The translations under genes and the position numbers were made by a program. Shown here piece by piece: positions 7,908 through 60,629 of a stretch of 64,000 nucleotides of DNA. Every line of letters begins with the position of its first letter. Within the stretch, counting starts at the first letter, position 1. This stretch comes from Vicinamibacteria bacterium (lineage in GTDB: Bacteria; Acidobacteriota; Vicinamibacteria; Vicinamibacterales; JAENWD01): contig CAVUPP010000010.1 in assembly GCA_963743245.1 (NCBI GenBank), positions 128,910 through 192,909 on the forward strand, read 5' to 3'. The notes under the pieces were generated by a model, which saw only the letters and a list, made by a program, of their open reading frames with translations, was not told the origin of the DNA and searched no databases.

Positions 7908-8677
7908 TTCCCACAATGTGGTATCCCGCGTCGACCATCAGGATCTCGCCGGTGATCGCCTTGCCCGTTGGACCGAGCAGGAACGACGCGGCGTCGGCGA
8001 CTTCGGACGTCTCCACGGTGCGTCTCAATCGGCGCTTTGTCGCGATACACCTGCAGGATGCTCGAGAATCCCCCGATGCCGGATGCCGCCAGCGTCTTGA
8101 TGGGCCCAGCCGAGATCGCGTTCACGCGGATGTTCTGCGGACCGAGCTCGCTCGCCAGATAGCGCACCGACGCTTCGAGCGCGGCCTTCGCGACGCCCAT
8201 CACGTTGTAGTTGGTGAAGACGCGCTGGCTGCCGAGGTACGTCAGCGTGAGGATGCTGCCGCCGCCACGTGTCGCCATCAGCGGCGCGGCGCCCCGCGAC
8301 AATGAGATGAGCGAGTACGCACTCACGTCGAGCGCGACACGGAAACCTTCTCGCGACGTCTGCAGGAACGGTAACGCGAGATCCTCCCGCAGCGCATACG
8401 CCACGCCGTGTACCAGATAGTCCAGGCCGCCGAATTCCCGGCCCACGGCCTCGAAGAGCGCGCCAACCTGCTCGTCGTTCGTGACGTCGCAGGGCAGAAT
8501 GAGCGGGCGATCGAGGTCCGCCGCCAGCTCGCGCACGTTCTCTTCGAGCCGCTCGCCCTGATAGGTCACCGCCAGCCGGACGCCGCGTGCGTTCAGCGCC
8601 TTCGCGATCGCCCAGGCAATCGATCGCTTGTTGGCAATCCCGACGATGACGCCGAAGGTTCCGGTCAGATCGCTCAT
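7903..8677 (-). pseudogene. fabI: Enoyl-[acyl-carrier-protein] reductase (NADH) FabI, reading frame broken by one extra nt near 8029
   Basis: Track ORF 7862..8677 is FabI-like up to ...VYRDKAP, then becomes nonsense (IETHRGDVRSRRRR...). After skipping nt 8029, the next frame reads LRRTVETSEVADAASFLLGPTGKAITGEILMVDAGYHIVGT with a stop at 7903-7905, a typical FabI C-terminus. Confidence 0.85.
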
Positions 8678-8700
8678 GTCTCAAGTCCGTTGCGCAAAGA

Positions 8701-8791
8701 CGTGTTCGTTTTCGTGTTCGTATTCGGGTCCTGGTCGTCTTTCGGATTCGTTCCTTGACGAACACGAATCCGAACACGAATACGACATACG
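8701..8791. repeat. Inverted 6-nt-period array (gtgttc/gttttc/gtattc ... gaacac/gaatcc/gaatac)
   Basis: Read directly, between the fabI start (8677) and the stop of the upstream gene (8857). Confidence 0.65.
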
Positions 8792-8856
8792 TCTGAGAGT
8801 CTCAGAACAACCGGATTTACGCGAGACAGGCCACGAGGCCGTCAAAGGTGGGCGCG

Positions 8857-9537
8857 TTACTTCGAGCGCTTCTTGCCACCACGCCGCCGCGACTGCCCCT
8901 GCCGTTCTCCCTGGGCCGGTCTGGCGCGGTTCCCCTGTGAGGCATGCCCGGTCGCGGCCATGCCGTTCCCCCGCCGTCCCTTGAAATTGAACGAATTGCC
9001 CATGTCGGAGGGACCGCCCGGCATCCCGCCGCCACGCCGGCCGTGGCGGAAGCGCCCGGGCTTGGCGGCCGCCCGAATCGTGAATTCGGGTATGGGCCGC
9101 TGTTCCTTCGGCTGTCCTTCGTGCCGCGGCAGCGTGGCACGAATGAGCTGCCGATGGACCGGTCCCTCGGGCTCCTCGCCCGCCGAAGGCGCGGCGTCGT
9201 CCGAGCCATCCGCCGGCGCCGCTGCCACCGCGACGGGTTCGTCGCCGGGGGGCGCAGAATCTGGCGGAACCGGCGTCGGGGGCGCGGGTGCGACGGGCCG
9301 ACGCGGAGCGCCGCCGCTCAGGACCTCCTGGAACAAGCCGCCGGAGCCTTCCTTCTTCTTTCGCTGTGGCGGAATCTTGGCCTGCTTGTACTCGTGTTCC
9401 GCTTCACACGTGGAGCACCGGGTCTGTTTGATTTCCTGCTCGATCATTGCCACGACGACGTGATTGGTTATGCGTCGTTCACGGGGGCAATAGTCGTCGA
9501 GTATGTCACCAAGCCGAGGCTGGCGCTGTTGCATCAA
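8857..9537 (-). CDS. Hypothetical protein, N-terminal Cys-containing module plus Pro/Ala-rich linker and Arg/Gly-rich tail
   Basis: Track ORF, 226 aa. The ordered N-terminus (LGDILDDYCPRERRITNHVVVAMIEQEIKQTRCSTCEAEHEYK) is followed by low complexity. No family was recognised. Confidence 0.5.
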   Translation of the reverse strand: MMQQRQPRLGDILDDYCPRERRITNHVVVAMIEQEIKQTRCSTCEAEHEYKQAKIPPQRKKKEGSGGLFQEVLSGGAPRRPVAPAPPTPVPPDSAPPGDEPVAVAAAPADGSDDAAPSAGEEPEGPVHRQLIRATLPRHEGQPKEQRPIPEFTIRAAAKPGRFRHGRRGGGMPGGPSDMGNSFNFKGRRGNGMAATGHASQGNRARPAQGERQGQSRRRGGKKRSK

Positions 9538-9631
9538 CCCTCCCGAAGGGGTGCGATCGAGGTACGCGGGATTGGGCGCAGGTCGGAAAGTCTAGCAGAG
9601 CTACGCAGTTGGAGCAACAAACCTCCGGCGA

Positions 9632-11023
9632 TCAGCGGTTGCGCACACGCTCATCGGCCACGAACCGCCCGAGCTCTTGCAAGGCCGCCGCCACGGCGTC
9701 CGGATGGGTGGATTGCGGCGTCCGGCGCGCCGCCACCGAGGCCGTCGCGGTCACGCGGTCGATGACGTCCGCCTGAAACAGGTCGCTGTAGCGCTGCCAT
9801 TCCACCAGTGTCAGAGATTCGAAGTCCCGGCCCTCGTCGAGCAGCCGGCGGGTCATGAGTCCGACCAATTCGTGCGCCCGCCGGAACGGCAGGCCCCGCG
9901 ATACCAGGTAATCCGCAACATCCGTTGCAAGGAGCAGGCCTGCCGCGGCCGGAGTCGTCCGGTCTGCATCGATGCGCAAGCCTCGGACGACGACGGCGAC
10001 TGACTCGAGGCAGCCGGTCAATGTCGCATCCGCGTCGAAGACCGCTTCCTTGTCCTCCTGCAGATCCTTGTTGTACCCGCTGGGCAGCCCCTTCATCGTC
10101 GCGAGGAATCCCGCGAGCCGGCCTATCGTGCGACCCGTCTTCCCGCGCACGAGCTCGAGCGGGTCCGGATTCTTCTTCTGCGGCATCATGCTGCTGCCGG
10201 TGGACGCTTCGTCGGACAACTCGAAGAAGCCGTGTTCCTCGCCGCTGAAGATGATGATGTCTTCGGCAAATCGGCTCAGGTGGACCATCGACAGCGTGCA
10301 GGCGTGCAGGAAGGCGGAGGCGAAGTCGCGATCGGCCGATGCGTCGATGCTGTTCGTCACCACCCGCGAAAATCCGAGCGCCGACGCCAGGGCGGCCGTG
10401 TCGATGGCGTAGTTGGTGCCCGCAACCGCACCCGATCCGAGCGGAAGCGCGTCGGCTTCCGCCGCAGCCTCTCCCAGTCTGGCGTGGTCGCGACGCAGCG
10501 CGGCAGCGTGCGCGAGAAGGAAATGCGCCACCAGCACGGGCTGTGCGCGCCGCAGGTGCGTATACGCCGGCATCAACGTTGTGCCCGCTTTGCCGGCGAG
10601 CGTGAAAAGGGCCTCGAGGACGTCGAGCACCTGGCGCTGGAGCGCGACAATCCGGCGGCGCAGGTAGAGGCGCAGGTCCAGGGAAACCTGTTCGTTCCTC
10701 GAGCGTCCGGTGTGGAGCCGCCGTCCGGGATCGCCGATGCGTTCGACGAGCTGCCGTTCTACGAAGGAATGCACGTCCTCGTCTGGACCCGCGACCCACG
10801 CCGGATCGGCCGTGCCGCGCTCCAGGATTTCGGTCAGCGCGCCGGTGATGGCGCGCGCATCCTCAGGCGACAGGACCCGCGCAGTGAGCAGCGCGTCGGC
10901 CCACGCCAGACTCCCACGCACATCGTCCTCGAACAGGCGACGGTCGAATGGGAACGAGGCACCAAACTCGAAAACCGCGGCGTCGGGCGCCGTGTCGAAC
11001 CGGCCAGACCACAGCGTAGACAT
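9632..11023 (-). CDS. argH: Argininosuccinate lyase
   Basis: Track ORF, 463 aa. MSTLWSGRF, the lyase signature GSSMMPQKKNPD and full-length collinearity with ArgH. Confidence 0.95.
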   Translation of the reverse strand: MSTLWSGRFDTAPDAAVFEFGASFPFDRRLFEDDVRGSLAWADALLTARVLSPEDARAITGALTEILERGTADPAWVAGPDEDVHSFVERQLVERIGDPGRRLHTGRSRNEQVSLDLRLYLRRRIVALQRQVLDVLEALFTLAGKAGTTLMPAYTHLRRAQPVLVAHFLLAHAAALRRDHARLGEAAAEADALPLGSGAVAGTNYAIDTAALASALGFSRVVTNSIDASADRDFASAFLHACTLSMVHLSRFAEDIIIFSGEEHGFFELSDEASTGSSMMPQKKNPDPLELVRGKTGRTIGRLAGFLATMKGLPSGYNKDLQEDKEAVFDADATLTGCLESVAVVVRGLRIDADRTTPAAAGLLLATDVADYLVSRGLPFRRAHELVGLMTRRLLDEGRDFESLTLVEWQRYSDLFQADVIDRVTATASVAARRTPQSTHPDAVAAALQELGRFVADERVRNR

Positions 11024-11025
11024 GT

Positions 11026-12255
11026 TCAGACTTTCGCGGGCGGAACGGCCGGCGCGTCGGCGTGATCCTGCTTCGCCGCGCGTGCGGCGATCTCGACGGG
11101 GCCGCCCAGCATCCGCACGAAGCCTGCCGCTGCCGTCCGGTCGAACTGGTCGCCGCCTGCGTGCGTGGCCAGCGCGGCCTCATATTGCGCAAACGGAGAC
11201 GTGCGTCCGACGACGCGGACGTCGCCGTGGAACAGCTTCACGCGAACAGTACCAGTGACACGTTGCTGGACGCGCGCGACGAAAGCGTCGAGCGCATCCC
11301 GCGTGGGCGTGAACCACCGGCCGTCGTACACCAGGTCGGCGTACGCGTTGGCGACGACGTCGGACAGTCTCGCGAGATCGCGGCCCGTGACGAAGCGCTC
11401 GAGATCTCGGTGCGCCGCATGCAGCACCGTAGCCGCCGGCGCTTCGTAGATCTCACGGGTCTTGATCCCGACAATTCGGTTCTCGACCATGTCGATCCGC
11501 CCGACGCCATGGTCGCCAGCGATCGTCGTCAGCGCGTCCACGAGCTCGACGAGCGGCATCGTGACCCCGTTGACCGAGACGGGAACGCCCTGCGCGAATC
11601 CCACCTCGACGTAGGCGGGTTCACCGGCGCACGCGGCGGGCTCGCGGGTCAGCGCGAAGATCTCGGCCGGCGCTTCCTGCCAGGGATCGTCGAGCACACC
11701 GCACTGAACCGACCGGCCCCAGAGATTGGTGTCGATGCTGTACACAGGATCGGTTGCACCGGTCATGGCGATGCCGCGGGCGCGCGCGAAGGCAAGTTCC
11801 TCGGCGCGGTTCATTCCCCAATCACGAGCCGGTGCGAGTACCGTCAGCGCGGGATCGAGCGCCCGGATCGACAGCTCGAGTCGCACCTGGTTATTGCCCT
11901 TTGCGGTCCCGCCGTGCGCGACCGTGGATGCGCCTTCCATCCTCGCGATTTCCACGAGGCGCCGGGCGATGAGCGGGCGTGCCAGCGCCGACGCGAGCGG
12001 ATAGTGCCCCTCGTAGAGCGCGCCAGCCTGCAGCGCCGGCAGGACGTACTCTCGCGCGAACTCGTCCTGGCAATCAAGCACATGGCAGCGAGCGGCTCCC
12101 GCCCCACGCGCACGCGCCCGCACGTGTTCGAGCTCTTTGCCCTGACCAAGGTCGAGCGTGACCGTCACGACCTCCGCGCCCAGATGCTCCACGAGCCAGG
12201 GGATGGCAACGGACGTATCGAGGCCGCCGGAATACGCGAGAACGATGCGAAGCAT
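11026..12255 (-). CDS. argG: Argininosuccinate synthase
   Basis: Track ORF, 409 aa. AYSGGLDTS (the N-type ATP-PPase motif), GATGKGNDQ-like AHGGTAKGNNQVR and DTNLWGRS. It ends 2 nt before the argH start. Confidence 0.95.
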   Translation of the reverse strand: MLRIVLAYSGGLDTSVAIPWLVEHLGAEVVTVTLDLGQGKELEHVRARARGAGAARCHVLDCQDEFAREYVLPALQAGALYEGHYPLASALARPLIARRLVEIARMEGASTVAHGGTAKGNNQVRLELSIRALDPALTVLAPARDWGMNRAEELAFARARGIAMTGATDPVYSIDTNLWGRSVQCGVLDDPWQEAPAEIFALTREPAACAGEPAYVEVGFAQGVPVSVNGVTMPLVELVDALTTIAGDHGVGRIDMVENRIVGIKTREIYEAPAATVLHAAHRDLERFVTGRDLARLSDVVANAYADLVYDGRWFTPTRDALDAFVARVQQRVTGTVRVKLFHGDVRVVGRTSPFAQYEAALATHAGGDQFDRTAAAGFVRMLGGPVEIAARAAKQDHADAPAVPPAKV

Positions 12256-12256
12256 T

Positions 12257-12346
12257 TTCAGGTTACAGACTTCAGGCTACAGACTTCAGACTTCAGGCTA
12301 CAGGCTACAGGCCAGCTACGAACTACGAACTACCAACTACCAACTA
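12257..12346. repeat. 7-nt-period array (cagactt x2, caggcta x2, ctacgaa x2, ctaccaa x2)
   Basis: Read directly, between the argR stop (12350) and the argG start (12255). Confidence 0.7.
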
Positions 12347-12349
12347 GAT

Positions 12350-12802
12350 TCATCTCCCAATGATGTCGCCGACGCGATCGGCGAACGCGACGGCCCGCCG
12401 GGCATCGCGGAGTATCACGAGGATGGTGTCGTCTCCAGCGATCGTGCCCACCACATCCGGAAGCAAGGCCCGGTCGATGGCAATAGCGGTCGGATTTGCC
12501 TGCGCCGGCGGTGTCTTGAGGACCACGAACTGCTGCACCCGGTCCACCTGGGTCACTGAGTCCGCAATCGCCCGCGTCATCGCCCCTGGGGCGCCGGACG
12601 GCGTGACGACCGCGCCAGTCGCGCGCTGGTACGCCCCGTCAGCAGCGCGTTTGACGAGCCCGAGCTCCTTGATATCCCGCGAAATCGTGGCCTGCGTGGC
12701 ATCGAGCCCGGCCGCATGGAGCCCTTTCCGGAGCTGTTCCTGGTTCCGAATGGGCTCGCGGTCCAGGAGCTGAAGAATGATGGCTTGTCGTCGTGCCTTC
12801 AT
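12350..12802 (-). CDS. argR: Arginine repressor
   Basis: Track ORF, 150 aa. The N-terminal winged helix (RQAIILQLLDREPIRNQEQLRKGLHAAGLDATQATISRDIKELGLVK) and the C-terminal GTIAGDDTILV motif are typical of ArgR/AhrC. Confidence 0.9.
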   Translation of the reverse strand: MKARRQAIILQLLDREPIRNQEQLRKGLHAAGLDATQATISRDIKELGLVKRAADGAYQRATGAVVTPSGAPGAMTRAIADSVTQVDRVQQFVVLKTPPAQANPTAIAIDRALLPDVVGTIAGDDTILVILRDARRAVAFADRVGDIIGR

Positions 12803-12927
12803 GAATATTCACCGGGACGAAAGAGTATACACGAGTGGATTACCCGGATGCCACGCCCCTAACGGTCGCGCCACAAAATTTACTTGATCCACCGTACGGC
12901 AGGCCGTATACTTATCCGCTCCACTGG

Positions 12928-13941: not shown

Positions 13942-14768
13942 TGTCGCGGCACGGCTGGCGGATTCTGAAGGTCGGCGGCGAGTTGCTCGAAGACGAGGTC
14001 CGGCTCCGCGGCCTCGCGGCTGTCGTCGCACGTGTTTCCTCGCTGCTGCCGTTGACGGTGGTGCACGGCGGCGGCAGGGAGATCGATCGGGCGCTTGCAC
14101 GCGCCGGCATTGCGAAACACCAGGTGGACGGTCTGCGCGTCACCGATGCCGACACGCTGGACGTCGTCGTCAGCGTCCTCGCGGGCAGCGTGAACACCCG
14201 TTTCGTCGCAGCGATCAACGCGGCGGGCGGCAAGGCCGTCGGCCTCACGGGCGCCGATGCCGGGCTCGCGCTGGCGGAGCGCGCGGCGCCGCACGTGACG
14301 GTGGCCGGCGAGACGGTGGATTTGGGATTGGTGGGCGAACCGATCGGTCAACGGTGGCCGCGACTGCTCGTCGATCTCGGAGGCAACGGCTACGTGCCGG
14401 TCGTGGCCAGTATCGGCATGAGCCCGCAGGGCGGCTTGTTGAACGTGAACGCCGATACGCTCGCGGCGCATCTCGCGGGCCGGCTCGCCGTCGCCCGGCT
14501 GGTCATCGCGGGCGGCACGGCTGGCGTGCTCGACGAGGATGGCAAGACGATTCCCCGGCTCGATCGTGAAGCGGTGCAGGCGCTGATCCGGTCGGGTGTG
14601 GCCAATGCGGGGATGGTGGCGAAGCTGCGCGCCTGCGAGCAAGCGCTGACGCACGGCGCGGCAGAGGTCGTGCTCATCGACGGCCGTGATCCGATGGCCG
14701 TGGAAGCCATGCTCATCGCGGCGCCGGGCGAACTGCCGGCGGTGCCGACAACGCGAATGGTGGCCTGA
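13941..14768 (+). CDS. argB: Acetylglutamate kinase
   Basis: In-frame ATG at 13941 (GTG at 13938), overlapping the argC stop (TGATG). ILKVGGELL, VVHGGG, NVNADT and MVAKLRAC are ArgB-like. Confidence 0.9.
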   Translation: MSRHGWRILKVGGELLEDEVRLRGLAAVVARVSSLLPLTVVHGGGREIDRALARAGIAKHQVDGLRVTDADTLDVVVSVLAGSVNTRFVAAINAAGGKAVGLTGADAGLALAERAAPHVTVAGETVDLGLVGEPIGQRWPRLLVDLGGNGYVPVVASIGMSPQGGLLNVNADTLAAHLAGRLAVARLVIAGGTAGVLDEDGKTIPRLDREAVQALIRSGVANAGMVAKLRACEQALTHGAAEVVLIDGRDPMAVEAMLIAAPGELPAVPTTRMVA

Positions 14769-14769
14769 C

Positions 14770-15993: not shown

Positions 15994-15998
15994 CTGAC

Positions 15999-18830: not shown

Positions 18831-18833
18831 GTG

Positions 18834-20529
18834 ATGATCAGCAAGCCCTGGCTCCAGCACTACGACGAAGGCGTTCCAGCCTCTCTCCAGCCGTACCCGG
18901 ACACCACCCTCGTTGACGCCGTCGCCGAGGCGGCGCGTGATCGGCCGCAGCATCCAGCGCTCCTCTTCAAGGGCACCGTCGTCACGTTCGGTGAGCTCGA
19001 CCGCCTGAGCACGGCTCTCGCGGCCGAGCTCGCCGCGGACGGCGTCCGCAAGGGCGATCGCGTCGCTCTCGTGCTTCCGAATTGTCCCCAGTTCGTCATC
19101 GGGCAATTCGGCATCTGGAAAGCCGGCGGCGTCGTCGTGCCGATCAATCCGATCTACACGGAACGTGAACTGACGCTGGCGCTCAGCGAATCTGGCGCTG
19201 GCATCGCCATCGCGCTGACGCGCCTGTACGACCGCTTGAAAGCTGTCCAGCCTGGCACCTCGGTTCGCCGTGTGATCGCGACGAACATCAAAGAGCACTT
19301 GCCGCGCCTGCAGGCGCTCCTGTTCACGCTGCTGAAGGAAAAGAAAGACGGTCATCGAATCACCCTCGCCGAGGGCGACCGCTGGTTCCGCGAGGTGCTC
19401 GTGTCGGGCGGCAGGCGTCCCGCGCCACCAACGAGGCCGCTGCCGGGCGATCCCGCGGTGCTGCTCGGCAGTGGCGGAACCACGGGAACGCCAAAAGCCG
19501 CCATCGGTGACCATCGTGTCTACGTCCAGGCGGGCTTACAGCTGCGTGCGTGGACCGGCTCGGTCTTCGAGAAATACACCGACATCATCCTGCTGCCGCT
19601 GCCGCTCTTTCACGTGTACGCCAACGTCGGCGTCCAGGCGATGGCGATTGTGGGTCACAACCCTGTCGCACTGGTTCCGAATCCGCGGGACATCGACGAC
19701 CTGCTCAAGACGATCCGGAAAGTCCGGCCGGCGTTCTTCGCGGGCGTCCCCACGCTCTTCAACGCGATACTGAATCACCCGTCGGTCGGGGCGGGCCGCG
19801 TCGATCTCGAGCTCGATCAAGATTTGCTTCTCGGGCGCGTCGGCGTTGCTGGCCGAGACCCGCCGACAGTTCGTCGAAATGACGCGCGGACACATCGTAG
19901 AAGGGTATTCCCTCACCGAAGGGATGATGGCGTGCATCCTCAATCCGGTGAAAGGCCCCGCGAAGAACGGTTCGATCGGAATGCCGCTCCCGGACGTGAC
20001 GGTCCAGATCGTAGACGCGGACGACAGCTCACAACGCCTCGGCCCGGGCGAGGTGGGCGAGCTCATCATGCAGGCGCCGCAGTTGATGAGCGGTTACTGG
20101 GGCAACCCGGGTGAGACGGCTGACGTTCTTCGGCAACGGCCGGATGGCGGCACCTGGCTGTACACGGGTGACATCGGGTATGCCGACGAGGACGGCTACG
20201 TCTACCTCGTCGATCGCAAAAAGGATCTGATCAAGACGAGCGGCTTTCAGGTCTGGCCGCGCGAGATCGAAGAAGTGCTCGCCGCTCACCCGTCGGTCGT
20301 CGAGGTCGCGGCGGCCGGCATCGCGGACTCTGCAAAAGGAGAGGTCGTCAAGGCGTGGGTCGTGCTGAAGGAAGGCGCCCACGCCACCGAGGACGACCTG
20401 CGCCGCTGGTGCCGCGAGCGTCTCGCGGCCTACAAAGTTCCTGCGAGCGTCGAGTTCCGATCGGAGCTGCCCAAGAGCCTCGTGGGCAAAGTGCTGCGGC
20501 GTGCGCTCGCCGGTCGTCAGCCTGCTTGA
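18834..20529 (+). pseudogene. Long-chain-fatty-acid--CoA ligase (AMP-binding family), frame broken by one extra nt near 19809
   Basis: Track ORFs 18831..20114 and 19846..20529 are the two halves. The first is good up to ...HPSVGAGRVDL. The +1 frame continues SSIKICFSGASALLAETRRQFVEMTRGHIVEGYSLTE...TGDIGYADEDGYVYLVDRKKDLIK...PKSLVGKVLRR. Confidence 0.85.
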
Positions 20530-21201: not shown

Positions 21202-23507
21202 ATGGACCTTCTGCTCGGCCTGTCTTTGTTCGGCGTGGCCTTCATCGTGGCGCTGATCGTGCCCATCCTCGGCTGGGTGCGCGCGGCGCACGCGATGAAC
21301 GAGGTGCGGCAGCTGCGCACACGCATCGGGGCAATCGAACAGGAGCTGAGGAAGCTCACTCAAGCACGAGTCGTTCCTGGTGCCGATGCGGCGTCCGCCG
21401 TCCCCTCGGAGCCCGTCATGGTGACGCCTCCCGCAGGCGAGATCCGCGTCGCGGCAGCTCCTCCCGTCGAAGCGACGGCACAGGAACTGATCGCCGCGCC
21501 CCCTGTCCCGGATCCCGTTCCTGCCGATCTTCCGCACCCCGAGCCCGCGCTGCCACACGTCCAGAGCACACCGGCGCCGGTCGTGGCGTCCCCAGCCCGA
21601 ACCGGCGAAGGCGTCGAAGCGGCAATCGGTGGGCGGCTGCTCCTGTACGCGGGCGCCTTGACGGTCATCCTGGGGGTTGCCTTCTTCCTGAAGTACGCGT
21701 TCGACCGGAACTGGATTACCGAGTGGATGCGTGTCGCAATCGGCATCCTGTCCGGCATCGGGTTCGTGGCGCTCGGCCTTCGGCTCGCTCGAGCGGGATA
21801 CCGGGGCTACGGCCAGATTCTGAGCGGCGTAGGCCTGGCGGCCCTCTACCTCTCCGTCTACGCGGCGTTCAGCTTCTACGACCTGATCGGCCGGACGGCG
21901 GCGTTCGCGCTTGTTGCTCGGTGTCACGGTGGCCGCGGCCTGGCTGTCGGATCGCCAGGAGTCGCAGGGCATGGCCGTGATGGCCGTCGGCGGCGGATTC
22001 CTCACGCCATTTCTCGTGGGCGGCGACTCGGACGCGCAGATCACGTTGTTCTCGTATGTGGCGTTGCTGATTGTCGGCACGCTCTGGCTCGCCCGGCGGC
22101 GAGGCTGGCCGCTGCTCCTGGTAATGGCATACGGATTCACGCTGATGACCGTCGGCGCGTGGGCAGCCGATTACTACACGCCCTCCAAGTACCTGCGAAC
22201 GACGCTCCTGCTGACAATGTTCTGCGGACTGTTCATCCTCGCGCGCTGGGACGTGGCGGCATCCACGACCGGGAGCGCGCGGTTTGCCAATTCGATTCTC
22301 GCGTCGGCTCCGGTGCTCTATCACATCGCCATCGTCGGGCTGCTGTTCAACCACGGCGTGGCGCTCCTCGTCTATCTGATTGCGGTGAGCCTCGTCGGCG
22401 TCGGATGGGCGATGCACACCGAGCGAGCGGGCCTTCGCCTGGTCATGTGGGCCGCCGTGCTGCTGCCGCTCATCGGCTGGGTGTCGGATCATCAGACCCG
22501 CGCGTGGATCCTTCCAGGACTGGTCACCATCGGCGCCGTCTTTCTGATCCACCTGGTCGCGCAGTTCGACCGTTTGATTCGACACGACACGAAGCTCGGA
22601 TGGCAGGACCTCGTCCTGGCCCACGGCAACGGTCTCGGCGCCTTCCTGGCCGTGTACGTCCTGCTCGAGCACACATCCCTCGCCTGGGTTCCCTACGCCG
22701 GCCTGGTGCTGGCGGCGCTTCACGCCGTCGTGGGACGGCAGATACGCCTTCGTGACCTCTCGGCCTCGCTTCACGCCCTGGCGGTGGCGTTCTCGCTGCT
22801 CGCTGCCGTCGTTGCGGTGCAATTGGATGGAGCGTGGCTGACAGCGGCCTGGAGCGCAGAAGGCGCAGCCGTTGTGCTCATCGGTGTCTGGATGGGACAG
22901 ACGTGGTTCCGGACCGCTGGAGCTGCGCTGTTCACGGTGGCTGTGTGGCGCTGGCTCGCTTTTACGGTGCCGTCCGAACCAGCGGTGTTCGATCCGTTCC
23001 TGAACGAGACGCTTGTTGCTCGGCCTGTGGCTGACCGGACTGCTCTACGTGATGGCATGGGCCCATCACAAGGCGGCGCCGTCGCTCCCCTACCGTCGCG
23101 ACAGCCTGGCAACGCTGCTCATCGCCGCCAGCATCATCACGACAATCACGTTGACGGCGCAGTCAGAATCGTACTGGCAGCAGCAGGGTGGCACGAGCCC
23201 AGACGCCACGTTCGCTCGAGGACTGACGCTCTCGGTGCTGTGGGCGGCATATGCCGGGCTGCTCATCGTGCTCGGGATCCGCAAGCGCTACCCGCCCATC
23301 CGGTACTTCGCGATCGGACTCCTCGCGATCACGATCGGCAAGGTGTTCCTGTCGGATCTGTCCGAGCTCGAAGGCATCTACCGCGTGCTCGGCCTCCTCA
23401 TCGTCGGCGCGATTCTGCTCGTCGTCTCTTTCCTGTATCAGCGCGTGACGCGCGCCGCCGCGACGGAAGATGCACCGCCCCCGGCGGCAACAGATTCGGC
23501 CGGATAG
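21202..23507 (+). pseudogene. DUF2339-type polytopic membrane protein, frame broken twice (near 21910 and 23012)
   Basis: Three track ORFs (21202.., 21911.., 23013..23507), each shifted +1 from the previous one, carry consecutive hydrophobic segments. These include ...AFFLKYAFDRNWI..., ...GGGFLTPFL... and the C-terminal FLSDLSELEGIYRVLGLLIVGAILLVVSFLYQR. Each ORF turns into Arg/Pro-rich nonsense after its junction. Confidence 0.75.
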
Positions 23508-39111: not shown

Positions 39112-40618
39112 TCAATCTGCCTTCGTCAATGCAGGATTCGCCGCCGGAGCGGCTTTCCTGTCGGTCCGAAGCAGGAACCGGCGCACGCGACTGAGGAGTG
39201 TGGCCGCCGGTTCGACGGCCGCAGCGTTCGTGGCTGCCGCCGTCCGGGCCGAGCTCAACTCGGCGCGGCGTCGCACGACATCCGCTGAAATCGTCTCGAG
39301 GACCGCGGGATTCTGGAGCGCAATCTCCCGGAACCCGCCGGCCGTGATCTCTACGACCCGGCAATCGCTACTGGCGCTGACCGTTGCCGTGCGTGGATCG
39401 CCGGTCAGCAGCGACATCTCCCCGAAGTACCCGCCCTGGCCAATCGTTGCGACCTCGTGCCGGTCCAGGCCGATCGTGACCCGCACCTGCCCCGAGGCGA
39501 CGATGAACGCCGAATCCCCGGCCTCGCCTTCGCGGACGATCGATTCTCCGGTGCCATAGAGATGTTCGCGCGTCCGATGGGCCAGCTCGCGCCGCTCGTC
39601 GGGCGACAACGACCCGAAGAGCGCCGCGCTCTCGAGAACGCGCTGAATGCGATCGGCGCGATCCGCCTCGCTCTCGTGCTCTTCGATCCGCTCGTATTGC
39701 ACCTGGATCGGGAACGGAATCTCGATCTTGCGCCGATCGAAGGCGTAGTAGAGCGCCGTCCGCAGCTCGTCGCGAATGATGTCGTCTTTGCGACGGCTCG
39801 GAAATCCAGAACTGCACGCGGTAGGTGATCGACGAGCTCGCAAAGTCCGCGAGGAGCACCTGCGGCGCGGCGGCACCTGCGAGCACCTGCGGATGCTGGC
39901 GCAGCACATCCTGGATCGCGTCTTTCACGTCGTTCGGCGGATTGTGATAGCCCGCCCCGATGTCGAACGAAATGCGCGTGGGCGCCGCCGGCTCCGAGAA
40001 GTTCGTGATCGCCTGTTTGGCGACCTCGCTGTTGGGGACGATCACGAGATTGCCCTGGCGCGTGCGGATCTTCGTGGCACGCCAGGTGATTTCGACCACC
40101 TCGCCCTCGAACTTCTCCGACGACACCCAGTTGCCGACATGGAACGGTTTCTCGACCTGAATGGCCAGGCCCGAGAACATGTTCCCGAGCGTGTCCTGCA
40201 GAGCGAACCCGATCACGACGGCACCGACCGCCGACGTGGTCAGGAACTTCTCGTCGAGGACGAACGTCGCGACGACGAGGAAGAGCCCGATGACGATCGC
40301 GTCCTGAACAATCGTGGGAAAACGATCCGAGGCGCGCCCGGTCCGCAGCGGATTGACCGCGACCAGAACGATCGTGTGGATGACGGCCAGCGCGAAGAGC
40401 AGCCGCGCAATCGACTGCAGGTTGGCCTCGACGGCAGACGACACCTGACCCCACGTCAGGATCGCGCCCAGCGCGAGCACCGCGAGCGACAGCACCAGCG
40501 TGAGCCGCAGCCGGCTCTTGACGATGCGGTTGGTCGTGAAGCCGCGGACGGCCAGCGCCACCGCGAACAGGACGGCGCTGGTCACCACGTGGAACGAGAC
40601 GTCGGTAGCAGCGGGCAC
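39112..40618 (-). pseudogene. MscS-family mechanosensitive channel with a C-terminal cyclic-nucleotide-binding domain (bCNG-like), frame broken near 39793-39800
   Basis: Track ORF 39368..40618 gives the TM and MscS core (LQDTLGNMFSGLAIQVEKPFHVGNWV...EVVEITWRATKIRT) up to RVQFWISEP. The +1 frame (track 39112..39909) continues RKDDIIRDELRTALYYAFDRRKIEIPFP and a cNMP domain (GYFGEMSLLTGDPRTATV). Confidence 0.85.
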
Positions 40619-43773: not shown

Positions 43774-43796
43774 CGACGCGAGAGTAGCAAGAAAAG

Positions 43797-48461: not shown

Positions 48462-48625
48462 GGCGGGCTGACGCCTGGCGCCGTTGAATTTGAAGGGAAG
48501 TGAAGGCGAGGGAGGCGGAAGGGACCCGCATGGTCGATGCGTCCTTCCTGTATTCAGTATCTCGCACGAGCGATCTACGTTCAAGACTGTTTCTTGCGGC
48601 CAGGGGCCGGTATCATCGCCGACCC

Positions 48626-50219
48626 ATGCCTGAGGACCGCACACGCCACGATGTCCTCGTCCGCATCGCCGACAATCCACAACTCGCGCGCGCCGTGCCG
48701 GACCTGCGGCCCGAGGTTCTGCACGCCGTGATCGCGCACTACGGCCTTCAAGACTGCGGTGAGCTGCTGGCCCTGGCCACTCCGGCACAGCTCTCGGCTG
48801 TCTTCGATCTCGACCTCTGGAAACCCACTCGCGCCGGTGCCGACGAGCAGTTCGACGCGGCGCGCTTCCTGGAATGGCTCGAAGTGCTGGTCGACGCCGA
48901 CTCGGTAATGGCCGCCGCACGGCTGGCCAGCATGGACGCATCGCTCGTCGCTGCCGGATTGTCGCCGTACCTGACGGTGTGGGATCCCGCGGTGTTCGAG
49001 CCCACGGACGAGCCGAGTAGCGCCGACCCGGTCTTGAACGCAGGCCGCGAACGGGGGGTCCACGCCGAGATTGGCGGATACCTCGTGGTCGCGCGCCGGC
49101 TGGACACGTGGGATTCGATCGTCGAGGCATTGAGCACGCTCGCCGAACAGTGCCCAGACAGCTTTCATCGCGTGATGCGACACTGCCGAAGGTTGTCGAA
49201 CTCTGGACGGGAGCTCGATGGTCTCGACGATCTGCTGTCGGACGCGGAGCAGGTCCGCTTCGACCTGGCGGTGCACCGGGAGGAGCGCCGCGATCGGCTC
49301 GGCTTCCTCCCGCCGGACCAGGCTCGCGCGTTTCTCGACTCGGCGCGCGTCACGAACGTCGCGGCGGAGCCAGAGCGACACCAGGTGTTCGCGGGGTATC
49401 AACGCTCGCAGATGACGAGCGAGACAGAGATGCGTCCAGCCGCGATCCCTGGTGAGACGCTCGCTGACGGACTGGCCCGCGACCAGGTGTCGGCGGTGGA
49501 GAGCGTCATCGAGATGCTGCGCGGCGCCGGTGTGCTGGCGGATGCGCCGCGTCTGCTCCTGCCCGCCGCGCAGGAGGAGCGATCCGCCGCGAATGCGGCA
49601 CTGACCCGCTATCTGCAGCACGTCGGAGAATCCGAGGACGACGGGTGGATCGCGCGACATCAGGAACTGGCGTTCCTCGCGAACGCGCTGATGTCGGGAT
49701 GCTCGGTGCAGGCGCGGCCGTTTTCGCACCGCGAGGCCATGGACGCCGTCGCGGCAACATGCAATCTCGGTCTCGAGTACTGGCCTCCCGCCTGGCGTCC
49801 CTCGTCTGAACACACTCTCGTGACGGTGTTTCAGATCGGTTGGACCGTCCTGCACCGCGAGGTGTCGATGGCCACAGCCGAACAAATCCTCGAAGCGCTG
49901 GATAACGTACGGGTCCAGCGATCAGGACGTGCAGTTTGAGCTGCACGTGCTCCGACGGGAGCTGCGCAAACAGAAGCAGGGAGGTACGCCGTGGCGGGCT
50001 CGCGACCGCCTCGAGGTGCTCGCCTCTCTCGATCTGCCGGCGTGGGCGGCCCTGACGGCGCTCCTGGACGAGTGTCCCGTGATGCTATCGAATGTGAGTC
50101 GGTCGGGCAGCCGCCGGCCGCACAGGGTAGATCCATCCGAGTTCCAGTTCATCGCGAACACGGGTCATGTCACCGCGGTCCACGAATTTCTTCGGTCGCT
50201 GGTCGAGCTGCTGACATAG
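48626..50219 (+). pseudogene. Conserved hypothetical helical protein, frame broken near 49922
   Basis: ATG at 48626 within track ORF 48500..49939. After ...LDNVRVQR the +1 frame (track 49929..50219) continues QDVQFELHVLRRELRKQKQGGTPWRARDRLEVLASLDLPAWAALTALLDECPVML...HEFLRSL. The two parts look like one protein, and I cannot assign a family with confidence. Confidence 0.55.
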
Positions 50220-50251: not shown

Positions 50252-51597
50252 ATGCTCGCCAACACCACTCGCGCGTCACCGCTTCAGGCAGCCGGACCCT
50301 CGGTGGCGACCGGTCGCGCGGCCGGATTCGCGTGCATGGTGGGCGCTGGTGATTCTCTGCTTCGTGTACGTTCTGAACTTCCTGGATCGGCAGCTCCTGT
50401 CGATTCTCGCCAAACCGATCCAGGACGAACTCGGCGTCACGGACGGACAGCTTGGGTTGATCAGCGGGCTCTATTTCGCGCTCTTCTACAGCCTGCTCGC
50501 GATTCCTGTCGGCTGGCTCGCGGATCGATCCAACCGGGTGCGCGTCCTGTCTATCGCGTGCGCGTTGTGGAGCGCAGCCACCGTGGCCTGCGGGCTCTCG
50601 TCCACCTACCCGCAGCTGGCGGCGGCACGGATGTCGGTTGGCGTTGGCGAAGCCGGGGGCGTCCCGCCCTCCTACGCCATCATCTCCGACTACTTTCCGC
50701 CCGGAATGCGTGGAATGGCGCTGGCCCTCTTCAACTTCGGGCCGCCACTCGGGCAGGCGCTTGGCGTCGCGTTCGGTGCGTCCATTGCAGCCGCCTACAG
50801 CTGGCGTTCCGCGTTCGTGTCGCTCGGCATGGTCGGCGGCGTCGCCGCGGTGGTCGTCTGGCTGTTCGTACGCGAGCCTGTTCGCGGTGGATTGGATGCG
50901 CCGATTAGCGGCTCGGAGGCCGGCACCCAACCGCCGAAGGCGCCGTTCTGGGCGACGTGCCGCAAGTTCTTCATGCATCCGGTGCTTTTGCGTGTCTCAC
51001 TGGCGTGCGCCGCGACGCAGTTCATTACGTATGCCGCGCTGAACTTCACGACGCTCTTCCTGATGCGCGAGAAGGGCATGACGCTGCGCGAGATCGCGAT
51101 CTACTACTCGTTGGTCATCGGGATTCCGATCTGCGCCGGGATGTACGCCTCCGGGCGCCTGATCGATCGCCTGGCGCCGCGCTCGAAGGCCGCCTTCGCG
51201 TATCTGCCCGCAGCCGGTCTGGCCCTTGCCATCCCGTTCTTCATCGGGTTCATCTGGGCGCCCCATTGGCCGCTCGCGTTGGCGTTCCTCACGATGCCCA
51301 CCTTTCTCAACTATTTCTATCTCTCGCCCTCGGTCACGCTCGTGCAGCAAGAGGTGCAGCCGCATGAACGCGTGCTCGCCGGCGCGTTGCTGTTGCTGGT
51401 GATGAACCTGATCGGTCTCGGGCTGGGACCGACGTTCCTCGGGCGCCATGAGCGATCTGTTCCGTCGCAGTCACCCCGCCCACTCGCTGCAGCTGGCGTT
51501 CTACACGCTCATACCGTTCTATGTGATCGCCGTGCTCAGCTTTCTCTGGCTGGCACGGGCGCTGAAAGAAGACGATCGACGCGGAGGCATCCTGTGA
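50252..51597 (+). pseudogene. MFS transporter (Spinster-like), frame broken near 50333 and 51444
   Basis: The core is in track ORF 50349.. (FVYVLNFLDRQLLSILAKPIQDELG, LADRSNRVRVL). TM1 is truncated unless the frame of the ATG at 50252 (MLANTTRA...RAAGFA) joins at about 50333. After GPTFLG the +1 frame reads AMSDLFRRSHPAHSLQLAFYTLIPFYVIAVLSFLWLARALKEDDRRGGIL, with a stop at 51595-51597. Confidence 0.75.
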
Positions 51598-53231
51598 CTT
51601 CGTTGCCCAATGGCGCCGCGTTGGTCGTCGTGTGTTGCCTGTTGCTGCCAATGGGTGCGCAGTCACCTTCCATTGTCGATGCGCCGGCAGGGCGCGTGCG
51701 CGGCGATACCGTCGGCACGGTCCGGGTCTTCAAGGGCATTCCCTACGCGCTTCCACCGACAGGCTCGCAGCGTTGGAAACCGCCGCAGCCGATGCCGAAG
51801 TGGAAGGGGACGCGCGATGCCACGGCATTTGGTCCGGCGTGCATTCAGCCCAAGCCGAGGCCGGGCAGCATCTACGCCTGGGATCTGCCCTCGACCAGCG
51901 AGGATTGCCTGTTCCTCAACATCTGGGCGCCCGCCAAGGCGCGGCATGCGCCGGTGTTCGTGTGGATTCACGGCGGCTCGCTCGTGGCGGGTTCCGGCGG
52001 CGACACGCTCTACGACGGATCCCGTCTTGCCGAGCACGGGGTGATCGTCGTGACGATCAACTACCGCCTCGGAGTGCTGGGCTATCTCGCGCATCCGGCG
52101 CTGAGTGCAGAGTCGCCGCAGAACGTCTCGGGCAACTACGGGCTGCTCGATCAGATTGAGGCGCTGAGGTGGGTGAAGCGGAACATCGCGGCCTTCGGCG
52201 GTGACGCGGCCAACGTGACAGTCGCCGGTGAATCCGCCGGCGGCCTGAGCGTGATGTACCTGATGGCCGCGCCCGATGCGCGCGGGCTCTTCGCGAAGGC
52301 CATCGCACAAAGTGCCTACATGATCTCGACTCCTGAGTTGAGGAGCACGACGTTTGGCGATTTTACCGCCGAAGCGATTGGCGAGTGGGTCGCTGGCAAG
52401 GTCGGCGCGACCGACCTGGCCGGCTTGCGCGCGATGGACGCGGTCGCGATCACGACCACGGCTGCGACCGCTGGGTACACGCCGCTTGGGACTGTCGATG
52501 GGCACGTATTGCCGCGGCAGCTCGTCGAGGTGTTCGATCGCGGCGAGCAGGCCAAGGTGCCCATTCTCGCGGGGTTCAATAACGGCGAGATCCGTTCGCT
52601 TCGTTTCCTTCTGCCGCCGGCGCCGGCTGACGCGGCGACCTATGAGAAGGAGATTCGCGCGCGCTACCTGGATCAGGCGGACGCCTTTCTCGAGCGATAT
52701 CCCTCGAGCAACGTGCCGGAGAGCATGCTCGCTACGACGCGCGACGCAATGTATGGCTGGACCGCCGAGCGACTGGTGGCCAAGCAGACGGCGGCTGGCG
52801 CGCCATCGTTCCTGTACTACTTCGATCATGGCTACCCCGTTGCCGACAACGCGGGGCTGCACGCCTTTCATGCGAGTGAGCTTCCGTACGTCTTCGGGAC
52901 TGCGGCCAGGACGCCGCCGCGATGGCCAGCCGTGCCTTCAACGCCTGTGGAGACAGCGCTCGCCGACGCGATGATCGGCTACTGGGCCGCATTCGCGCGA
53001 GACGGCGTGCCGACCGCCGCCGAAAAACCACCGTGGCCTGCCTACGGCACCAGTCGTTCCTACATGGCCTTCGAAGACGAACCGCGGCCGAAGACGAACC
53101 TGCTTCCAGGCATGTACGAGCTCGTCGAACGGGTCGTGTGCAGACGCCGCGCCGCCGGCCACATCCCGTGGCACTGGAATGTCGGCGTCGTTTCTCCGCC
53201 ACTGCCCGCCGACGTGCCGCAGTGCCACTGA
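51594..53231 (+). CDS. Exported type-B carboxylesterase/lipase family protein
   Basis: The GTG at 51594 overlaps the MFS stop (GTGA). Signal VTSLPNGAALVVVCCLLLPMGAQS, then EDCLFLNIW, VWIHGG and the nucleophile motif GESAGG. Confidence 0.85.
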   Translation: MTSLPNGAALVVVCCLLLPMGAQSPSIVDAPAGRVRGDTVGTVRVFKGIPYALPPTGSQRWKPPQPMPKWKGTRDATAFGPACIQPKPRPGSIYAWDLPSTSEDCLFLNIWAPAKARHAPVFVWIHGGSLVAGSGGDTLYDGSRLAEHGVIVVTINYRLGVLGYLAHPALSAESPQNVSGNYGLLDQIEALRWVKRNIAAFGGDAANVTVAGESAGGLSVMYLMAAPDARGLFAKAIAQSAYMISTPELRSTTFGDFTAEAIGEWVAGKVGATDLAGLRAMDAVAITTTAATAGYTPLGTVDGHVLPRQLVEVFDRGEQAKVPILAGFNNGEIRSLRFLLPPAPADAATYEKEIRARYLDQADAFLERYPSSNVPESMLATTRDAMYGWTAERLVAKQTAAGAPSFLYYFDHGYPVADNAGLHAFHASELPYVFGTAARTPPRWPAVPSTPVETALADAMIGYWAAFARDGVPTAAEKPPWPAYGTSRSYMAFEDEPRPKTNLLPGMYELVERVVCRRRAAGHIPWHWNVGVVSPPLPADVPQCH

Positions 53232-53303: not shown

Positions 53304-54183
53304 ATGACACATTCGATCAAAGACCGCGTGGCGATCGTCACGGGAGCGGGCGGCGGGCTCGGCCGCGAGCACGCGCTGTTCCTGGCGCGCAAGGGCGCGC
53401 GGGTTGTCGTCAACGATGTCGCGCGAGAGGCGGCCGAAGCCGTCGCCACCGAAATCGCCGCGTCAGGCGGCGTCGCGAAGGCATTCGCCGCTTCCGTGAC
53501 CGACGAATCCAGCGATTGCCGCGATGGTCGCCCGCACGCGTTCGGACTGGGGGCGCATCGACATCCTCGTGAACAACGCAGGCATCCTGCGCGACAAGAG
53601 CTTTGCCAAGATGAGCCTTGATGACTTCCGGCTCGTCGTCGATGTGCATCTCATGGGGTCGGTGATCTGCACCAAGGCGGTCTGGGACTGCATGCGCGAG
53701 CAGCGGCACGGACGCATCGTCATGACGACCTCGTCGTCTGGTCTCTACGGCAACTTCGGGCAGGCCAATTACAGTGCGGCGAAGATGGCGCTCGTTGGCC
53801 TCATGCAGACGCTCGCCATCGAAGGCGAGAAATACGGCATTTGTGTGAATTGCCTGGCGCCCTCGGCGGCGACGCAGATGACGCAGGGCGTATTGCCGGA
53901 CGCCAGCCTGCAATTGCTGGCTCCGGCACTCGTGAGCCCCGTGCTGCTCGGGCTCGTGTGCGACGATGCACCGACTCGAGCGATCGTGTGCGCGGGCGGA
54001 GGCCACGTCGCTCGCGCGAGCGTCACGCTGTCGCAGGGCTGCTATGTGGGCGGCGGAGACGAAGCGGATGAGCGCGTGATCGAAAAGTGGCCGGCAATAT
54101 CCGACCGCACGGACGAGATCGTGCCCGCGTATGGATTCATCCAGGCCGAGCGTGAGGTGGCCAGCGCGCAGGTGACGCGATGA
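53304..54183 (+). pseudogene. SDR-family 3-hydroxyacyl-CoA dehydrogenase-like oxidoreductase, frame broken near 53511
   Basis: Track ORF 53304..53621 gives [30 protein letters not shown] up to ...SVTDES. The +1 frame (track 53524..54183) continues [24 protein letters not shown]...YGNFGQANYSAAKMAL (catalytic YxxxK). Confidence 0.85.
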
Positions 54184-55357
54184 TGCGCGAGGCGGTGATC
54201 GTGTCCACCGCGCGGACGCCGATTGGACGCGCGTATCGCGGAGCCTTCAACGAGACGCCGGCGCCCACGCTCGCGGCCTTCGCCCTGAAGGCGGCAATCG
54301 CCCGCGCCGGAGTGGCGCCTGCTGAAGTCGAGGATTGCCTGCTCGGCTGCTCATTGCCCCAGGGCACACAACACACCATCGCCCGCATGGCGGCGCTTCG
54401 TGCGGGGTTGCCGGTGGAAGTGCCCGGCATGACGCTCGAGCGACAGTGTTCGTCGGGCCTCATGACCATCGCGACGGCCGCCAAACAGGTCATCGTCGAT
54501 CGCATGGATATCGTTGTCGCCGGCGGCGTCGAATCCATTTCGCTGGCGCAGACGGAAGCGCTTCGAATCGAGCTCGATCCTTCGCTGGTGGCTGACGCAT
54601 CCTGACGTCATCATGCCGATGATCGAGACGGCGGAAGTGGTCGCGGCGCGCTATGGCATCTCCCGCGAACAGTGCGATGCCTACGCGCTGTCTTCGCAGC
54701 AACGGACCGCGGCTGCCCAGGCGGCGAAGCGCTTTGACGCCGAACTCGTCCCGTGCAACGCGACCATGAAGCACGCTGGACAAGGTCAGCGGTGAGGTCA
54801 GCCGACGCGACGTGTCGCTCGCAACCGACGAAGGCGCACGTCCCGACACCACTCTTGCCGGCCTGGCGGCCTTGAAGCCGGTGTATACAGGCGGCACGGT
54901 CACCGCTGGAAATGCGAGTCAGCTCTCGGACGGCGCATCCGCTTGCGTCGTCATGGAAGCGCGAGTTGCGGCGCGGCGCGGACTCACGCCGCTCGGCCGA
55001 TACGTCGGCATGGCAGTGATCGGCACACGACCCGACGAGATGGGGATCGGCCCGGTGTTCGCCGTTCCGCGTCTGCTGGAGCGCTTCGGACTCGGCATGG
55101 ACGACATCGGACTCTGGGAATTGAATGAGGCGTTCGCTGTCCAGGTGATCTACTGCCGCGACCGGCTTGGCATACCCGACGATCGACTGAACGTGAACGG
55201 CGGCGCCATCTCGATCGGGCACCCGTACGGGATGTCGGGTGCACGACTGGTCGGGCACGCGCTCCTCGAGGGCCAGCGGCGCGGTGTGCGATACGTCGTC
55301 GTGACCATGTGCGTCGGTGGCGGCATGGGCGCGGCAGGGTTGTTCGAGGTTCTGTAA
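54180..55357 (+). pseudogene. Acetyl-CoA C-acyltransferase (thiolase), frame broken near 54597 and 54775
   Basis: Three successive +1-shifted track ORFs carry the protein. 54180.. gives the nucleophile Cys context LERQCSSGLM. 54514.. gives HPDVIMPMIETAEVVAARYGISREQCD. 54812..55357 gives [32 protein letters not shown] and CVGGGMG. The ATG overlaps the SDR stop (ATGA). Confidence 0.88.
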
Positions 55358-58952: not shown

Positions 58953-59053
58953 TTGTTCTGCCGATGGGTAGTGCTCGTTCGGCGTCAGTTCCGGCGAGCG
59001 AAGAATGGCTTGCCATCCGTAGCTCGCTCAGCGTCAGTTCCGCGAGCGAAGGA

Positions 59054-59128
59054 TGGTACCGGTACGGGGATTCGAACCCCGGTCCCGTGGCTGAGAACCA
59101 CGTGTCCTGACCCCTAGACGATACCGGC
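59054..59128 (-). tRNA. tRNA-Glu (anticodon CUC)
   Basis: Hand-folded. The acceptor is GCCGGTA/TACCGGT (G1-U72) and the D arm is GTCT-AGGGGTC-AGGAC. The anticodon arm is CGTGG-TTCTCAG-CCACG (CTC) and the T arm is CGGGG-TTCGAAT-CCCCG. A73 and an encoded CCA follow. The architecture is collinear with E. coli tRNA-Glu. Confidence 0.92.
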
Positions 59129-59263
59129 ACGTATCAGGAATCTTCGATCTTACCCAGCCCCCAGGACCTCGTCAACCTGCGCTCCGCGGTCGCCTTGGCG
59201 CACCGCACACGCGCACCGCGCAGCCCGCACCTCTACAGGATTGACAGGTATGATGGTGGACCG

Positions 59264-60629
59264 ATGCGTTACCTGCTCGCGCTCGTCGTGATCCTCGTCC
59301 TCGCTCTCGGCGGCTTCTGGGTCTACGCCGGCCGCGGCGGCGCTCCTGTCATCACCATCGACAAGCCCCAGACCCTCGTCGGCCAGGCGGGCACACTCGA
59401 CGTCGTGATCACGACGCCAGGCGGCAAGCTGAGTGAGTTGAACGCCACGTTGGAGCAGAGCGGCCAGTCGGTTTCGCTCTTTTCGCTCGCGCAGCCGGGT
59501 GGCGCCGACGCTGAAGCAGGAAGGCGCGGAAGCCGTACGGCTGACGCGTGGCATCGGCCGCGCCGACGTTCCACAACTGAAGAGCGGCGACGCACGGATC
59601 ACCATCACCGCCGCGCGCACGGGGCCGTTTGGCCTGCGCCGGCAGGTCGGCGCCGCCACCCGGGCGTTCCAGGTTCGCCTCGAGCCGCCCCGCGTCGCCG
59701 TGATCTCGACCCACCACTTCGTGAATCTTGGCGGCGCCGAGGCGGTCGTCTATCGCGCGACGCCGGCGGACGTGATGTCGGGTGTCAAGGTCGGCGAAGA
59801 CGAGTATCCGGGCTATCCGCTCAGCGGCGCGGGCGTCGCCGCCGATCCCTCGCTCAAGATCGCGTTCTTCGCCCTCCTCTTCGACCAGGATCTGAACACG
59901 CCGTTCACGGTGTTCGCGCGTGACGAGGCCGGCAACGGCGCGTCGACTCCACTCGACGCGAAGGTGTTCACCAAGAACTTCCGCCGCAGCCGGATCGAAG
60001 TGCCCCAGGCGTTCCTGCAGCGCGTGGTCCCCGCTATCCTCCAGAACACGCAGGGCTTTACCGCGTCGAATCCCTCGGATCTCCTGCAATCGTTCCTCGA
60101 GATCAACCGGGATCTACGTCAGAAGAACGCCCAGCAGATCGCGGCGCTGGCGAAGTCCACGTCGAAGGACATCCTCTGGCAGGGCGCGTTCCTGCAGCTC
60201 GGCAACTCGCAGGTCGAGTCGATGTTCGCGGACCATCGCACCTATTTCTACGAGAACAAGGAAATCGACCAGCAGGTGCACCTCGGGTTCGACCTGGCCG
60301 TCACGAGCGCCGTGCCCGTCGTGGCCGCCAACAAGGGCCGCGTCGTGAACGCGGACTTCCTGGGGATTTACGGGAATTGCGTCATCCTCGACCACGGAAT
60401 GGGCGTTCAATCGCTCTACGCGCACCTCTCGTCGATTGACGTCAAGGTCGGCGATACCGTAGAGAAAGGCCAGACGCTCGGCCGGAGCGGCATGACCGGT
60501 CTCGCCGGCGGCGATCACCTGCACTTCACCATGCTCGTGAACGGCCATCCGGTCAACGCGGTCGAGTGGTGGGACGCGCACTGGATCGAAGACCGCGTGA
60601 TGCGTAAGATTCGCGAAGCCAAGCAGTAG
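59264..60629 (+). pseudogene. M23-family (LytM-type) metalloendopeptidase, frame broken near 59498
   Basis: The ATG at 59264 gives a signal/anchor (MRYLLALVVILVLALGGFWVYA) and runs up to ...SLFSLAQP. The +1 frame (track 59499..60629) continues VAPTLKQEG... to the M23 motifs HLGFDLA, VILDHGMGVQSLYAHLS and GGDHLHF. Confidence 0.85.

Follow-up and report, generated by a model that had tools for sequence, protein, structure and literature searches.

Reading-frame breaks that split conserved bacterial genes have several described counterparts: indels that truncate proteins in long-read-only assemblies, Nanopore errors linked to base modification, the programmed +1 frameshift of prfB, and the interrupted genes of decaying genomes such as those of obligate pathogens and symbionts. 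In genome decay, essential genes are spared, and indels of both signs accumulate along with stop codons, deletions and relaxed codon usage. The modification-linked Nanopore cases known from the literature are mainly substitutions at methylated motifs. Modification-induced errors have been documented in Nanopore reads and in assemblies (PMC11610573, Lohde et al. 2024; PMC11610603, Genome Res 2024). Here we examine twelve frame breaks in nine conserved genes within a 64,000-nt window, positions 128910-192909 of contig C10 of an uncultured Vicinamibacterales (Acidobacteriota) metagenome-assembled genome (MAG; G000). The genome comprises 6.9 Mb in 25 contigs with 65% G+C and is estimated to be 96% complete with 4.99% contamination.

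At each break the conserved protein continues once a single surplus base is skipped. We consider it very probable that these surplus bases are errors in the assembly's consensus sequence rather than features of the organism's DNA. An insertion-biased assembly or consensus error was also the explanation preferred in the earlier note on this stretch, and it is supported by a genome-wide census, by orthologues, by the essential genes that are hit and by a strand-symmetric sequence context.

Twelve breaks in nine conserved genes

The frame breaks were mapped ab initio with a seven-state Viterbi model (a hidden Markov model, HMM) with one non-coding state and six reading frames, in which in-frame stops were forbidden and homology was not used. 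Its codon log-odds table was trained on 1,185 long, high-GC3 open reading frames (ORFs) from the same genome. A strict event required at least 200 nt in each flanking coding segment and an old-frame stop at least 30 nt away. When random bases were inserted into intact genes as a control, 672 of 700 were detected, always as +1, and were placed with a median offset of 0 nt (interquartile range -4 to +3). For comparison we used a genome of the same genus (G001; 730 contigs, 80-86% nucleotide identity), which is syntenic with window positions 1-19504 and 29125-43789.

In the window the HMM made same-strand +1 switches at 8019/8020, 19814, 21910, 23012, 39792/39793, 49905, 51440, 53510, 54556, 54772 and 59498, within 0-40 nt of the coordinates in the earlier note. 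Eleven of the twelve breaks claimed there were recovered, and the twelfth, at the N-terminus of a transporter of the MFS family, is likely. Since the HMM found these sites without homology, their recovery is independent of homology information. Its other switches in the window, apart from one short segment near 2174, fall at stop codons and mark ordinary gene boundaries. The nine genes and their breaks are as follows.

7905..8677, minus strand: fabI (enoyl-ACP reductase), one surplus base at about 8026-8029 (ccg-a-ttg on the coding strand), from three-frame translation
18831..20529, plus strand: acyl-CoA (AMP-forming) ligase, +1 break at about 19809-19815, with the HMM switch from frame +2 to +0 at 19814
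21202..23507, plus strand: DUF2339 membrane protein, +1 breaks at about 21910 and 23012, from HMM switches
39112..40618, minus strand: MscS-type channel with a C-terminal cNMP-binding domain, surplus base at 39790 (TTT-G-CGA on the plus strand)
48530..50219, plus strand: DUF6178-like helical protein, +1 break at about 49905-49935, from the HMM switch at 49905 and three-frame translation, with GTAC at the site
50252..51595, plus strand: MFS transporter, with a +1 break at about 51440 (HMM) and another that is likely at about 50300-50336
53304..54183, plus strand: short-chain dehydrogenase/reductase (SDR), +1 break at about 53510, from the HMM switch
54180..55357, plus strand: thiolase, +1 breaks at about 54590-54600 and 54772, from HMM switches and three-frame translation
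59264..60629, plus strand: M23 peptidase family protein, +1 break at about 59498, from the HMM switch

As the earlier note had claimed, all twelve breaks need one base to be skipped. Neither the HMM nor alignment to G001 gave a -1 break in the window. Under equal odds, twelve of twelve in one direction has a two-sided binomial p of about 5 × 10^-4.

Proteins translated jointly across the breaks were scanned against Pfam, and at seven breaks a single match covers the junction. In fabI, adh_short_C2 (positions 1-236 of 236) is continuous over the junction at residue 219; in the acyl-CoA ligase, AMP-binding (2-384 of 384) is continuous over residue 327; in the MscS-type channel, MS_channel_3rd (1-88 of 88) is continuous over residue 275; and in the SDR, adh_short (1-189 of 195) is continuous over residue 68. 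Both thiolase junctions, at residues 125 and 197, lie inside a continuous Thiolase_N match (2-259 of 260). The seventh is the first DUF2339 junction, at about 21910. For the second DUF2339 break and the DUF6178-like break the support comes from coding statistics; in the latter case this is because the DUF6178 match is limited to the N-terminal part of the protein.

Two surplus bases could be placed by alignment. G001 has a 1-nt gap at window position 8026 in fabI, where this genome reads GCG CCG A TTG AGA CGC and G001 reads GCA CCG CTC AGG CGC on the coding strand, and another at position 39790 in the channel gene. Both bases lie outside homopolymers. The break in the channel gene stands as first described, with the correction that the HMM puts the gene on the minus strand. 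Likewise, the break in what had been called a hypothetical helical protein is retained, and the protein itself matches DUF6178. For the first thiolase break, the position of 54597 given in the earlier note fits the three-frame translation better than the 54556 of the HMM.

In the DUF2339 gene the same 12-mer, CTTGTTGCTCGG, directly follows each of the two breaks, and two of its three genomic copies are found there. This sharing suggests a context-dependent error, though with three copies in the genome it is suggestive only.

In the MFS transporter gene, the MFS_1 match (1-347 of 347) sits between the two junctions. The break at 51440 is supported because distant MFS homologues run on in one frame through residues 436-439. 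The N-terminal stretch near 50333 is too short for the HMM. A break is nevertheless likely at 50300-50336, because the frame of the first transmembrane helix (RAWWALVILCFVYVLNFLDRQ) lacks a start codon upstream and the one ATG available, at 50252, belongs to the preceding frame. The HMM switch at 51593 (+0 to +2) was examined as a possible -1 event and rejected: it falls where the MFS gene stops and its neighbor begins, as at any ordinary gene boundary. A 960-aa ORF at 50349..53231 is not one gene; it comprises out-of-frame MFS sequence and then a separate gene of about 510 aa in the same frame (51594-53231).

The M23 peptidase forms one open frame, residues 1-452, in 17 relatives and is split here into 1-81 and 73-454. 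In one relative (G025, 10 contigs), the orthologue at C1:10,495-11,860 is also in two pieces, with one TAG inside one of them. Errors of this kind may be present in further assemblies of high contiguity within the order.

Genome-wide census and direction of the bias

Across all 25 contigs, the HMM gave 793 strict +1 events against 206 others. The +1 events are present on every contig of at least 31 kb, at about 1 per 8 kb, and their clustering is mild (variance-to-mean ratio 1.6 per 20-kb bin). With the same HMM and criteria, 190 kb of G001 gave no +1 events, where about 22 were expected, and 3 other events. From these 3 it follows that about half of the 206 other events are probably gene boundaries.

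We also compared the two genomes base by base, using 491 kb of G001 contigs, of which 371 kb aligned, and counting differences where the HMM also changes frame away from a stop. This genome has 77 one-base surpluses, 6 two-base surpluses and 7 one-base deficits. In the first batch of alignments examined, the two-base surpluses were mostly two nearby single surpluses. The insertion bias is therefore real, about 11:1, and is a property of this assembly rather than of the lineage. The earlier note had called for a genome-wide count of +1 against -1 breaks, and surpluses dominate it both by the HMM (793:206) and at the base level (77:7). Because the census shows the same bias, the bias in the window is not a sampling accident. 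The comparison with orthologous loci that had also been proposed places the breaks in this genome; they are absent from G001 and from relatives in the family.

The HMM was also run on loci from relatives. Loci from long-read "MFD" assemblies gave 4 +1 events in 59 kb and short-read loci 2 in 77 kb, which are small numbers, and two of the three HMM events in the short-read loci adjoin gene boundaries. One locus of a long-read Vicinamibacteria MAG (CAWFRL010000021.1, L090, from MFD00962.bin.2.121) has frame switches at 1298, 1998 and 4853 within 5.4 kb. Most of the other relatives' loci sampled had no frame switch. Error density seems to vary strongly between MAGs.

The census bears on the possibility of strain mixing, in which the breaks would be real in some cells and co-assembled strains would give indel polymorphisms or chimeric joins. 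The 4.99% contamination estimate and the complex source community are compatible with this. However, natural strain indels in coding regions are overwhelmingly multiples of three, unlike these single-base surpluses, and the events are evenly spread over all contigs. An 11:1 excess of insertions, specificity for particular k-mers and hits in essential genes would not be expected either. We regard strain mixing as highly unlikely.

Sequence context of the surplus bases

The earlier note had remarked that only some of the sites lie in short G or C runs. This is right: of 70 base-level surplus bases, 25 equal a neighbor, no more than at random. Their identities (29 C, 19 G, 12 A and 10 T) follow base composition. 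There was no homopolymer preference, as the longest run within 18 nt on either side was at most 3 in 89% of events, the same as in flanking controls. A homopolymer explanation was rejected on these comparisons of run length and neighbor identity.

One motif stands out. Within 15 nt of events, the count for GTAC is 180 against 64 expected, a 2.8-fold enrichment, and the other palindromic 4-mers tested, as well as GTAN and NTAC, were all at expectation near events. The signal is confined to GGTAC/GTACC. Sites reading AGTACC or its complement GGTACT have a hit rate of 3.5%, compared with 0.24% at baseline, and the rates for CGTACG, AGTACG, AGTACT and TGTACA (0.27-0.35%) equal the baseline or lie close to it. 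Of the 793 events, 104 (~13%) have GGTAC, or GTACC as its complement, at the site. Hit rates are higher for longer words. Frame breaks are found at 28 of 152 genomic copies of AGTACCGA, 13 of 47 copies of AGTACCGAC and 11 of 38 copies of CGAGTACCGA, and for some 9- and 10-mers the share of copies hit in the genome reaches about 30%. In base-level alignments, GTAC is kept in G001 where this genome has GTAC+C or G+GTAC. In k-mer scans with k = 4-6 and k = 8-10, the GTAC family was the only one clearly enriched. TAC is the highest-scoring codon in our model, so we considered whether the enrichment was an artefact of Viterbi placement. This was rejected, as the 672 simulated insertions showed no GTAC enrichment.

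The hot spot is about equally strong in both gene orientations. Counted in coding orientation, the reverse-complement pairs are GTACC 88 and GGTAC 67, AGTACC 38 and GGTACT 31, and AGGTAC 21 and GTACCT 28. This places the cause on double-stranded DNA or in its sequencing, not on mRNA. A signal read on mRNA would be strand-specific, so the hot spot points to a non-translational cause.

This symmetry bears on genuine recoding, in which the extra bases would be real and would be bypassed by programmed +1 frameshifting, quadruplet decoding or transcript-level correction. That all breaks are +1 and that the downstream frames are perfectly preserved is what recoding would need. However, the twelve sites share no mRNA-level motif, their contexts differ, and the sole enriched motif is equal in both orientations. 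Orthologues in the genus and family are unbroken. The genome's own prfB, at about 162,190-162,260 of contig C3 on the minus strand, provided a positive control, since its +1 recoding is genuine. It has the canonical CUU-UGA signal (...TAT CTT TGA GGC...) after about 25 codons, and none of the twelve sites resembles it.

Other routes to recoding fare no better. ARAGORN found no four-base anticodon among 53 tRNAs, and the surplus bases occur in varied contexts with no recurrent four-base codon, which argues against quadruplet decoding by an expanded-anticodon tRNA. A "tRNA-???" with a 2-base anticodon (C11:382279-382368) was set aside because it looks like a false prediction with a poor T arm. 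Long A/T homopolymer runs, as transcriptional slippage would use, are absent at the sites. Recoding in any of these forms is exceedingly improbable in our judgment. The same holds for its genome-wide consequence, that about a thousand genes, including rpoC, would be expressed through a +1 correction acting in translation or on transcripts.

Essential genes and absence of decay

The earlier note had pointed out that fabI, an essential gene, is affected. This is correct, and the single-copy essential genes rpoC, pheT and prfA are split as well. The rpoC gene is split at C20:408863, inside ...CGC GAG TAC C TCG ATC CCG..., such that model positions 1-989 and 963-1146 are in different frames, and its surplus base (C20:408,840-408,870) sits inside AGTACC. 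This is the clearest single example of the breaks not being biological. The prfA gene carries a +1 event by the HMM. An intact rpoB is expected, because the rate is only about one event per 4-8 kb, and rpoB is indeed intact, in keeping with essential genes being hit about as often as others.

Five events, taken from a random sample outside the window and scanned with Pfam, were in ligD, pheT, an ABC ATPase, a GDP-mannose dehydratase and a hybrid histidine kinase. Where the junction fell inside a domain, the domain match was continuous (3 of 3). No living cell could have rpoC, pheT, prfA and fabI as pseudogenes. Beyond the breaks the coding statistics are undiminished and the frames are free of stops, which is by construction for HMM events, and the joined proteins give full-length Pfam matches. 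The marks of pseudogenisation (mixed lesions, secondary stops, relaxed codon usage and the sparing of essential genes) were not found.

It is against this evidence that real mutation has to be weighed, that is, a hypermutator or decaying genome, for example after mismatch-repair loss, with about a thousand genuine single-base insertions. The mild clustering of the breaks (variance-to-mean ratio 1.6) would fit such a history. However, broken rpoC, fabI, pheT and prfA would be intolerable for a free-living cell with a 6.9-Mb genome, and the lack of secondary stops and the coding statistics kept downstream also count against it. Mismatch-repair loss produces indels of both signs in homopolymers, unlike the roughly 11:1 excess of insertions without homopolymer bias seen here. 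The absence of +1 events in the sister genome G001 and a GTACC k-mer hot spot that affects up to 30% of copies likewise argue against mutation. We consider real mutations very improbable.

Probable source of the surplus bases

If the surplus bases are consensus errors, there would be one spurious single-base insertion per about 4-8 kb of consensus, most of them in arbitrary, non-homopolymer contexts, with a strong hot spot at which GTAC becomes GTACC (GGTAC on the other strand). Each insertion would knock an intact, real gene out of frame. A conserved protein is then spread over two or three ORF pieces that are offset from one another by +1.

Among the closest public relatives, which are titled as Vicinamibacterales or Acidobacteriota MAGs, many are "MFD...bin" assemblies whose contigs are named "contig_N" in the style of Flye. 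MFD MAGs were produced by Nanopore-only Flye assembly and one round of Medaka polishing (PMC12313526). Judging from this context, the platform was most likely long-read, of the Nanopore-only Flye/Medaka type, at modest coverage. The GTAC hot spot would then be an artefact of the basecaller or polisher, perhaps with base modification as the trigger. That the hot spot marks bases truly modified at GTAC in this uncultured lineage is rather unlikely, although we give this idea some weight. We found nothing specific in the literature on GTAC-specific Nanopore insertions.

Several points weigh against consensus error. Textbook Nanopore errors are homopolymer deletions, unlike the insertion-dominated, non-homopolymer pattern here, and the GTAC hot spot accounts for only ~13% of events. 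The HMM ratio is itself approximate, since some 100 of the 206 other events may be gene boundaries. The case is built on the assembled sequence, and the sequencing platform of this genome is deduced from its relatives and their names. Even so, we hold consensus error to be very probable.

The main value of these observations is as a warning about data quality, and they add nothing to what is known of the organism's biology. Gene calling on this species-representative genome would turn perhaps 15-25% of its genes into pseudogenes or split ORFs. For an uncultured lineage of Vicinamibacterales, such miscalls would skew pangenome, metabolic and pseudogene statistics. The error signature (insertions far outnumbering deletions, no homopolymer bias, and GTAC to GTACC/GGTAC) could serve for automatic flagging or masking.

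Other features of the window

The window also contains intergenic repeats with periods of 7, 8, 14, 20 or 21 nt (e.g., GCACTCC, TGCGGAA, CAGGCTA and TCGACTTT).

7842-7906, 12257-12312, 21091-21121, 31282-31314, 36000-36048, 38082-38202 and 43797-43829: intergenic tandem arrays

The segment 7789-7905 matches dozens of other places in the genome and in family relatives, as a dispersed intergenic repeat family. A further intergenic block, 9509-9599, is near-identical to G001 apart from a short variable core, and no Rfam family matched it at gathering score.

Comparison with known systems

Pseudogene-rich, decaying genomes share with this one a large number of frameshift-interrupted genes. However, their indels of both signs, stop codons, deletions, relaxed codon usage and spared essential genes are not seen here. 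Programmed frameshifting in prfB shares the +1 direction and the intact downstream frame, but it uses a conserved CUU-UGA signal, whereas the breaks described here number about a thousand, have no such signal at the twelve sites and are not kept in orthologues.

The errors linked to modifications or motifs in Nanopore data (PMC11610573, PMC11610603) come closer. As here, they recur at a short palindromic motif (GTAC in our case), depend on the flanks and are strand-symmetric at the gene level. The lesion here differs, being a one-base insertion (GTAC to GTACC/GGTAC) that makes up only ~13% of events.

Indels that truncate proteins in long-read-only assemblies are classically associated with homopolymers, whereas here insertions prevail by about 11:1 with no homopolymer preference, and the platform is one that we infer. 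In other respects the likeness is close. In both, dense single-base indels split conserved and essential genes, and they are assembly-wide and absent from short-read assemblies of relatives.

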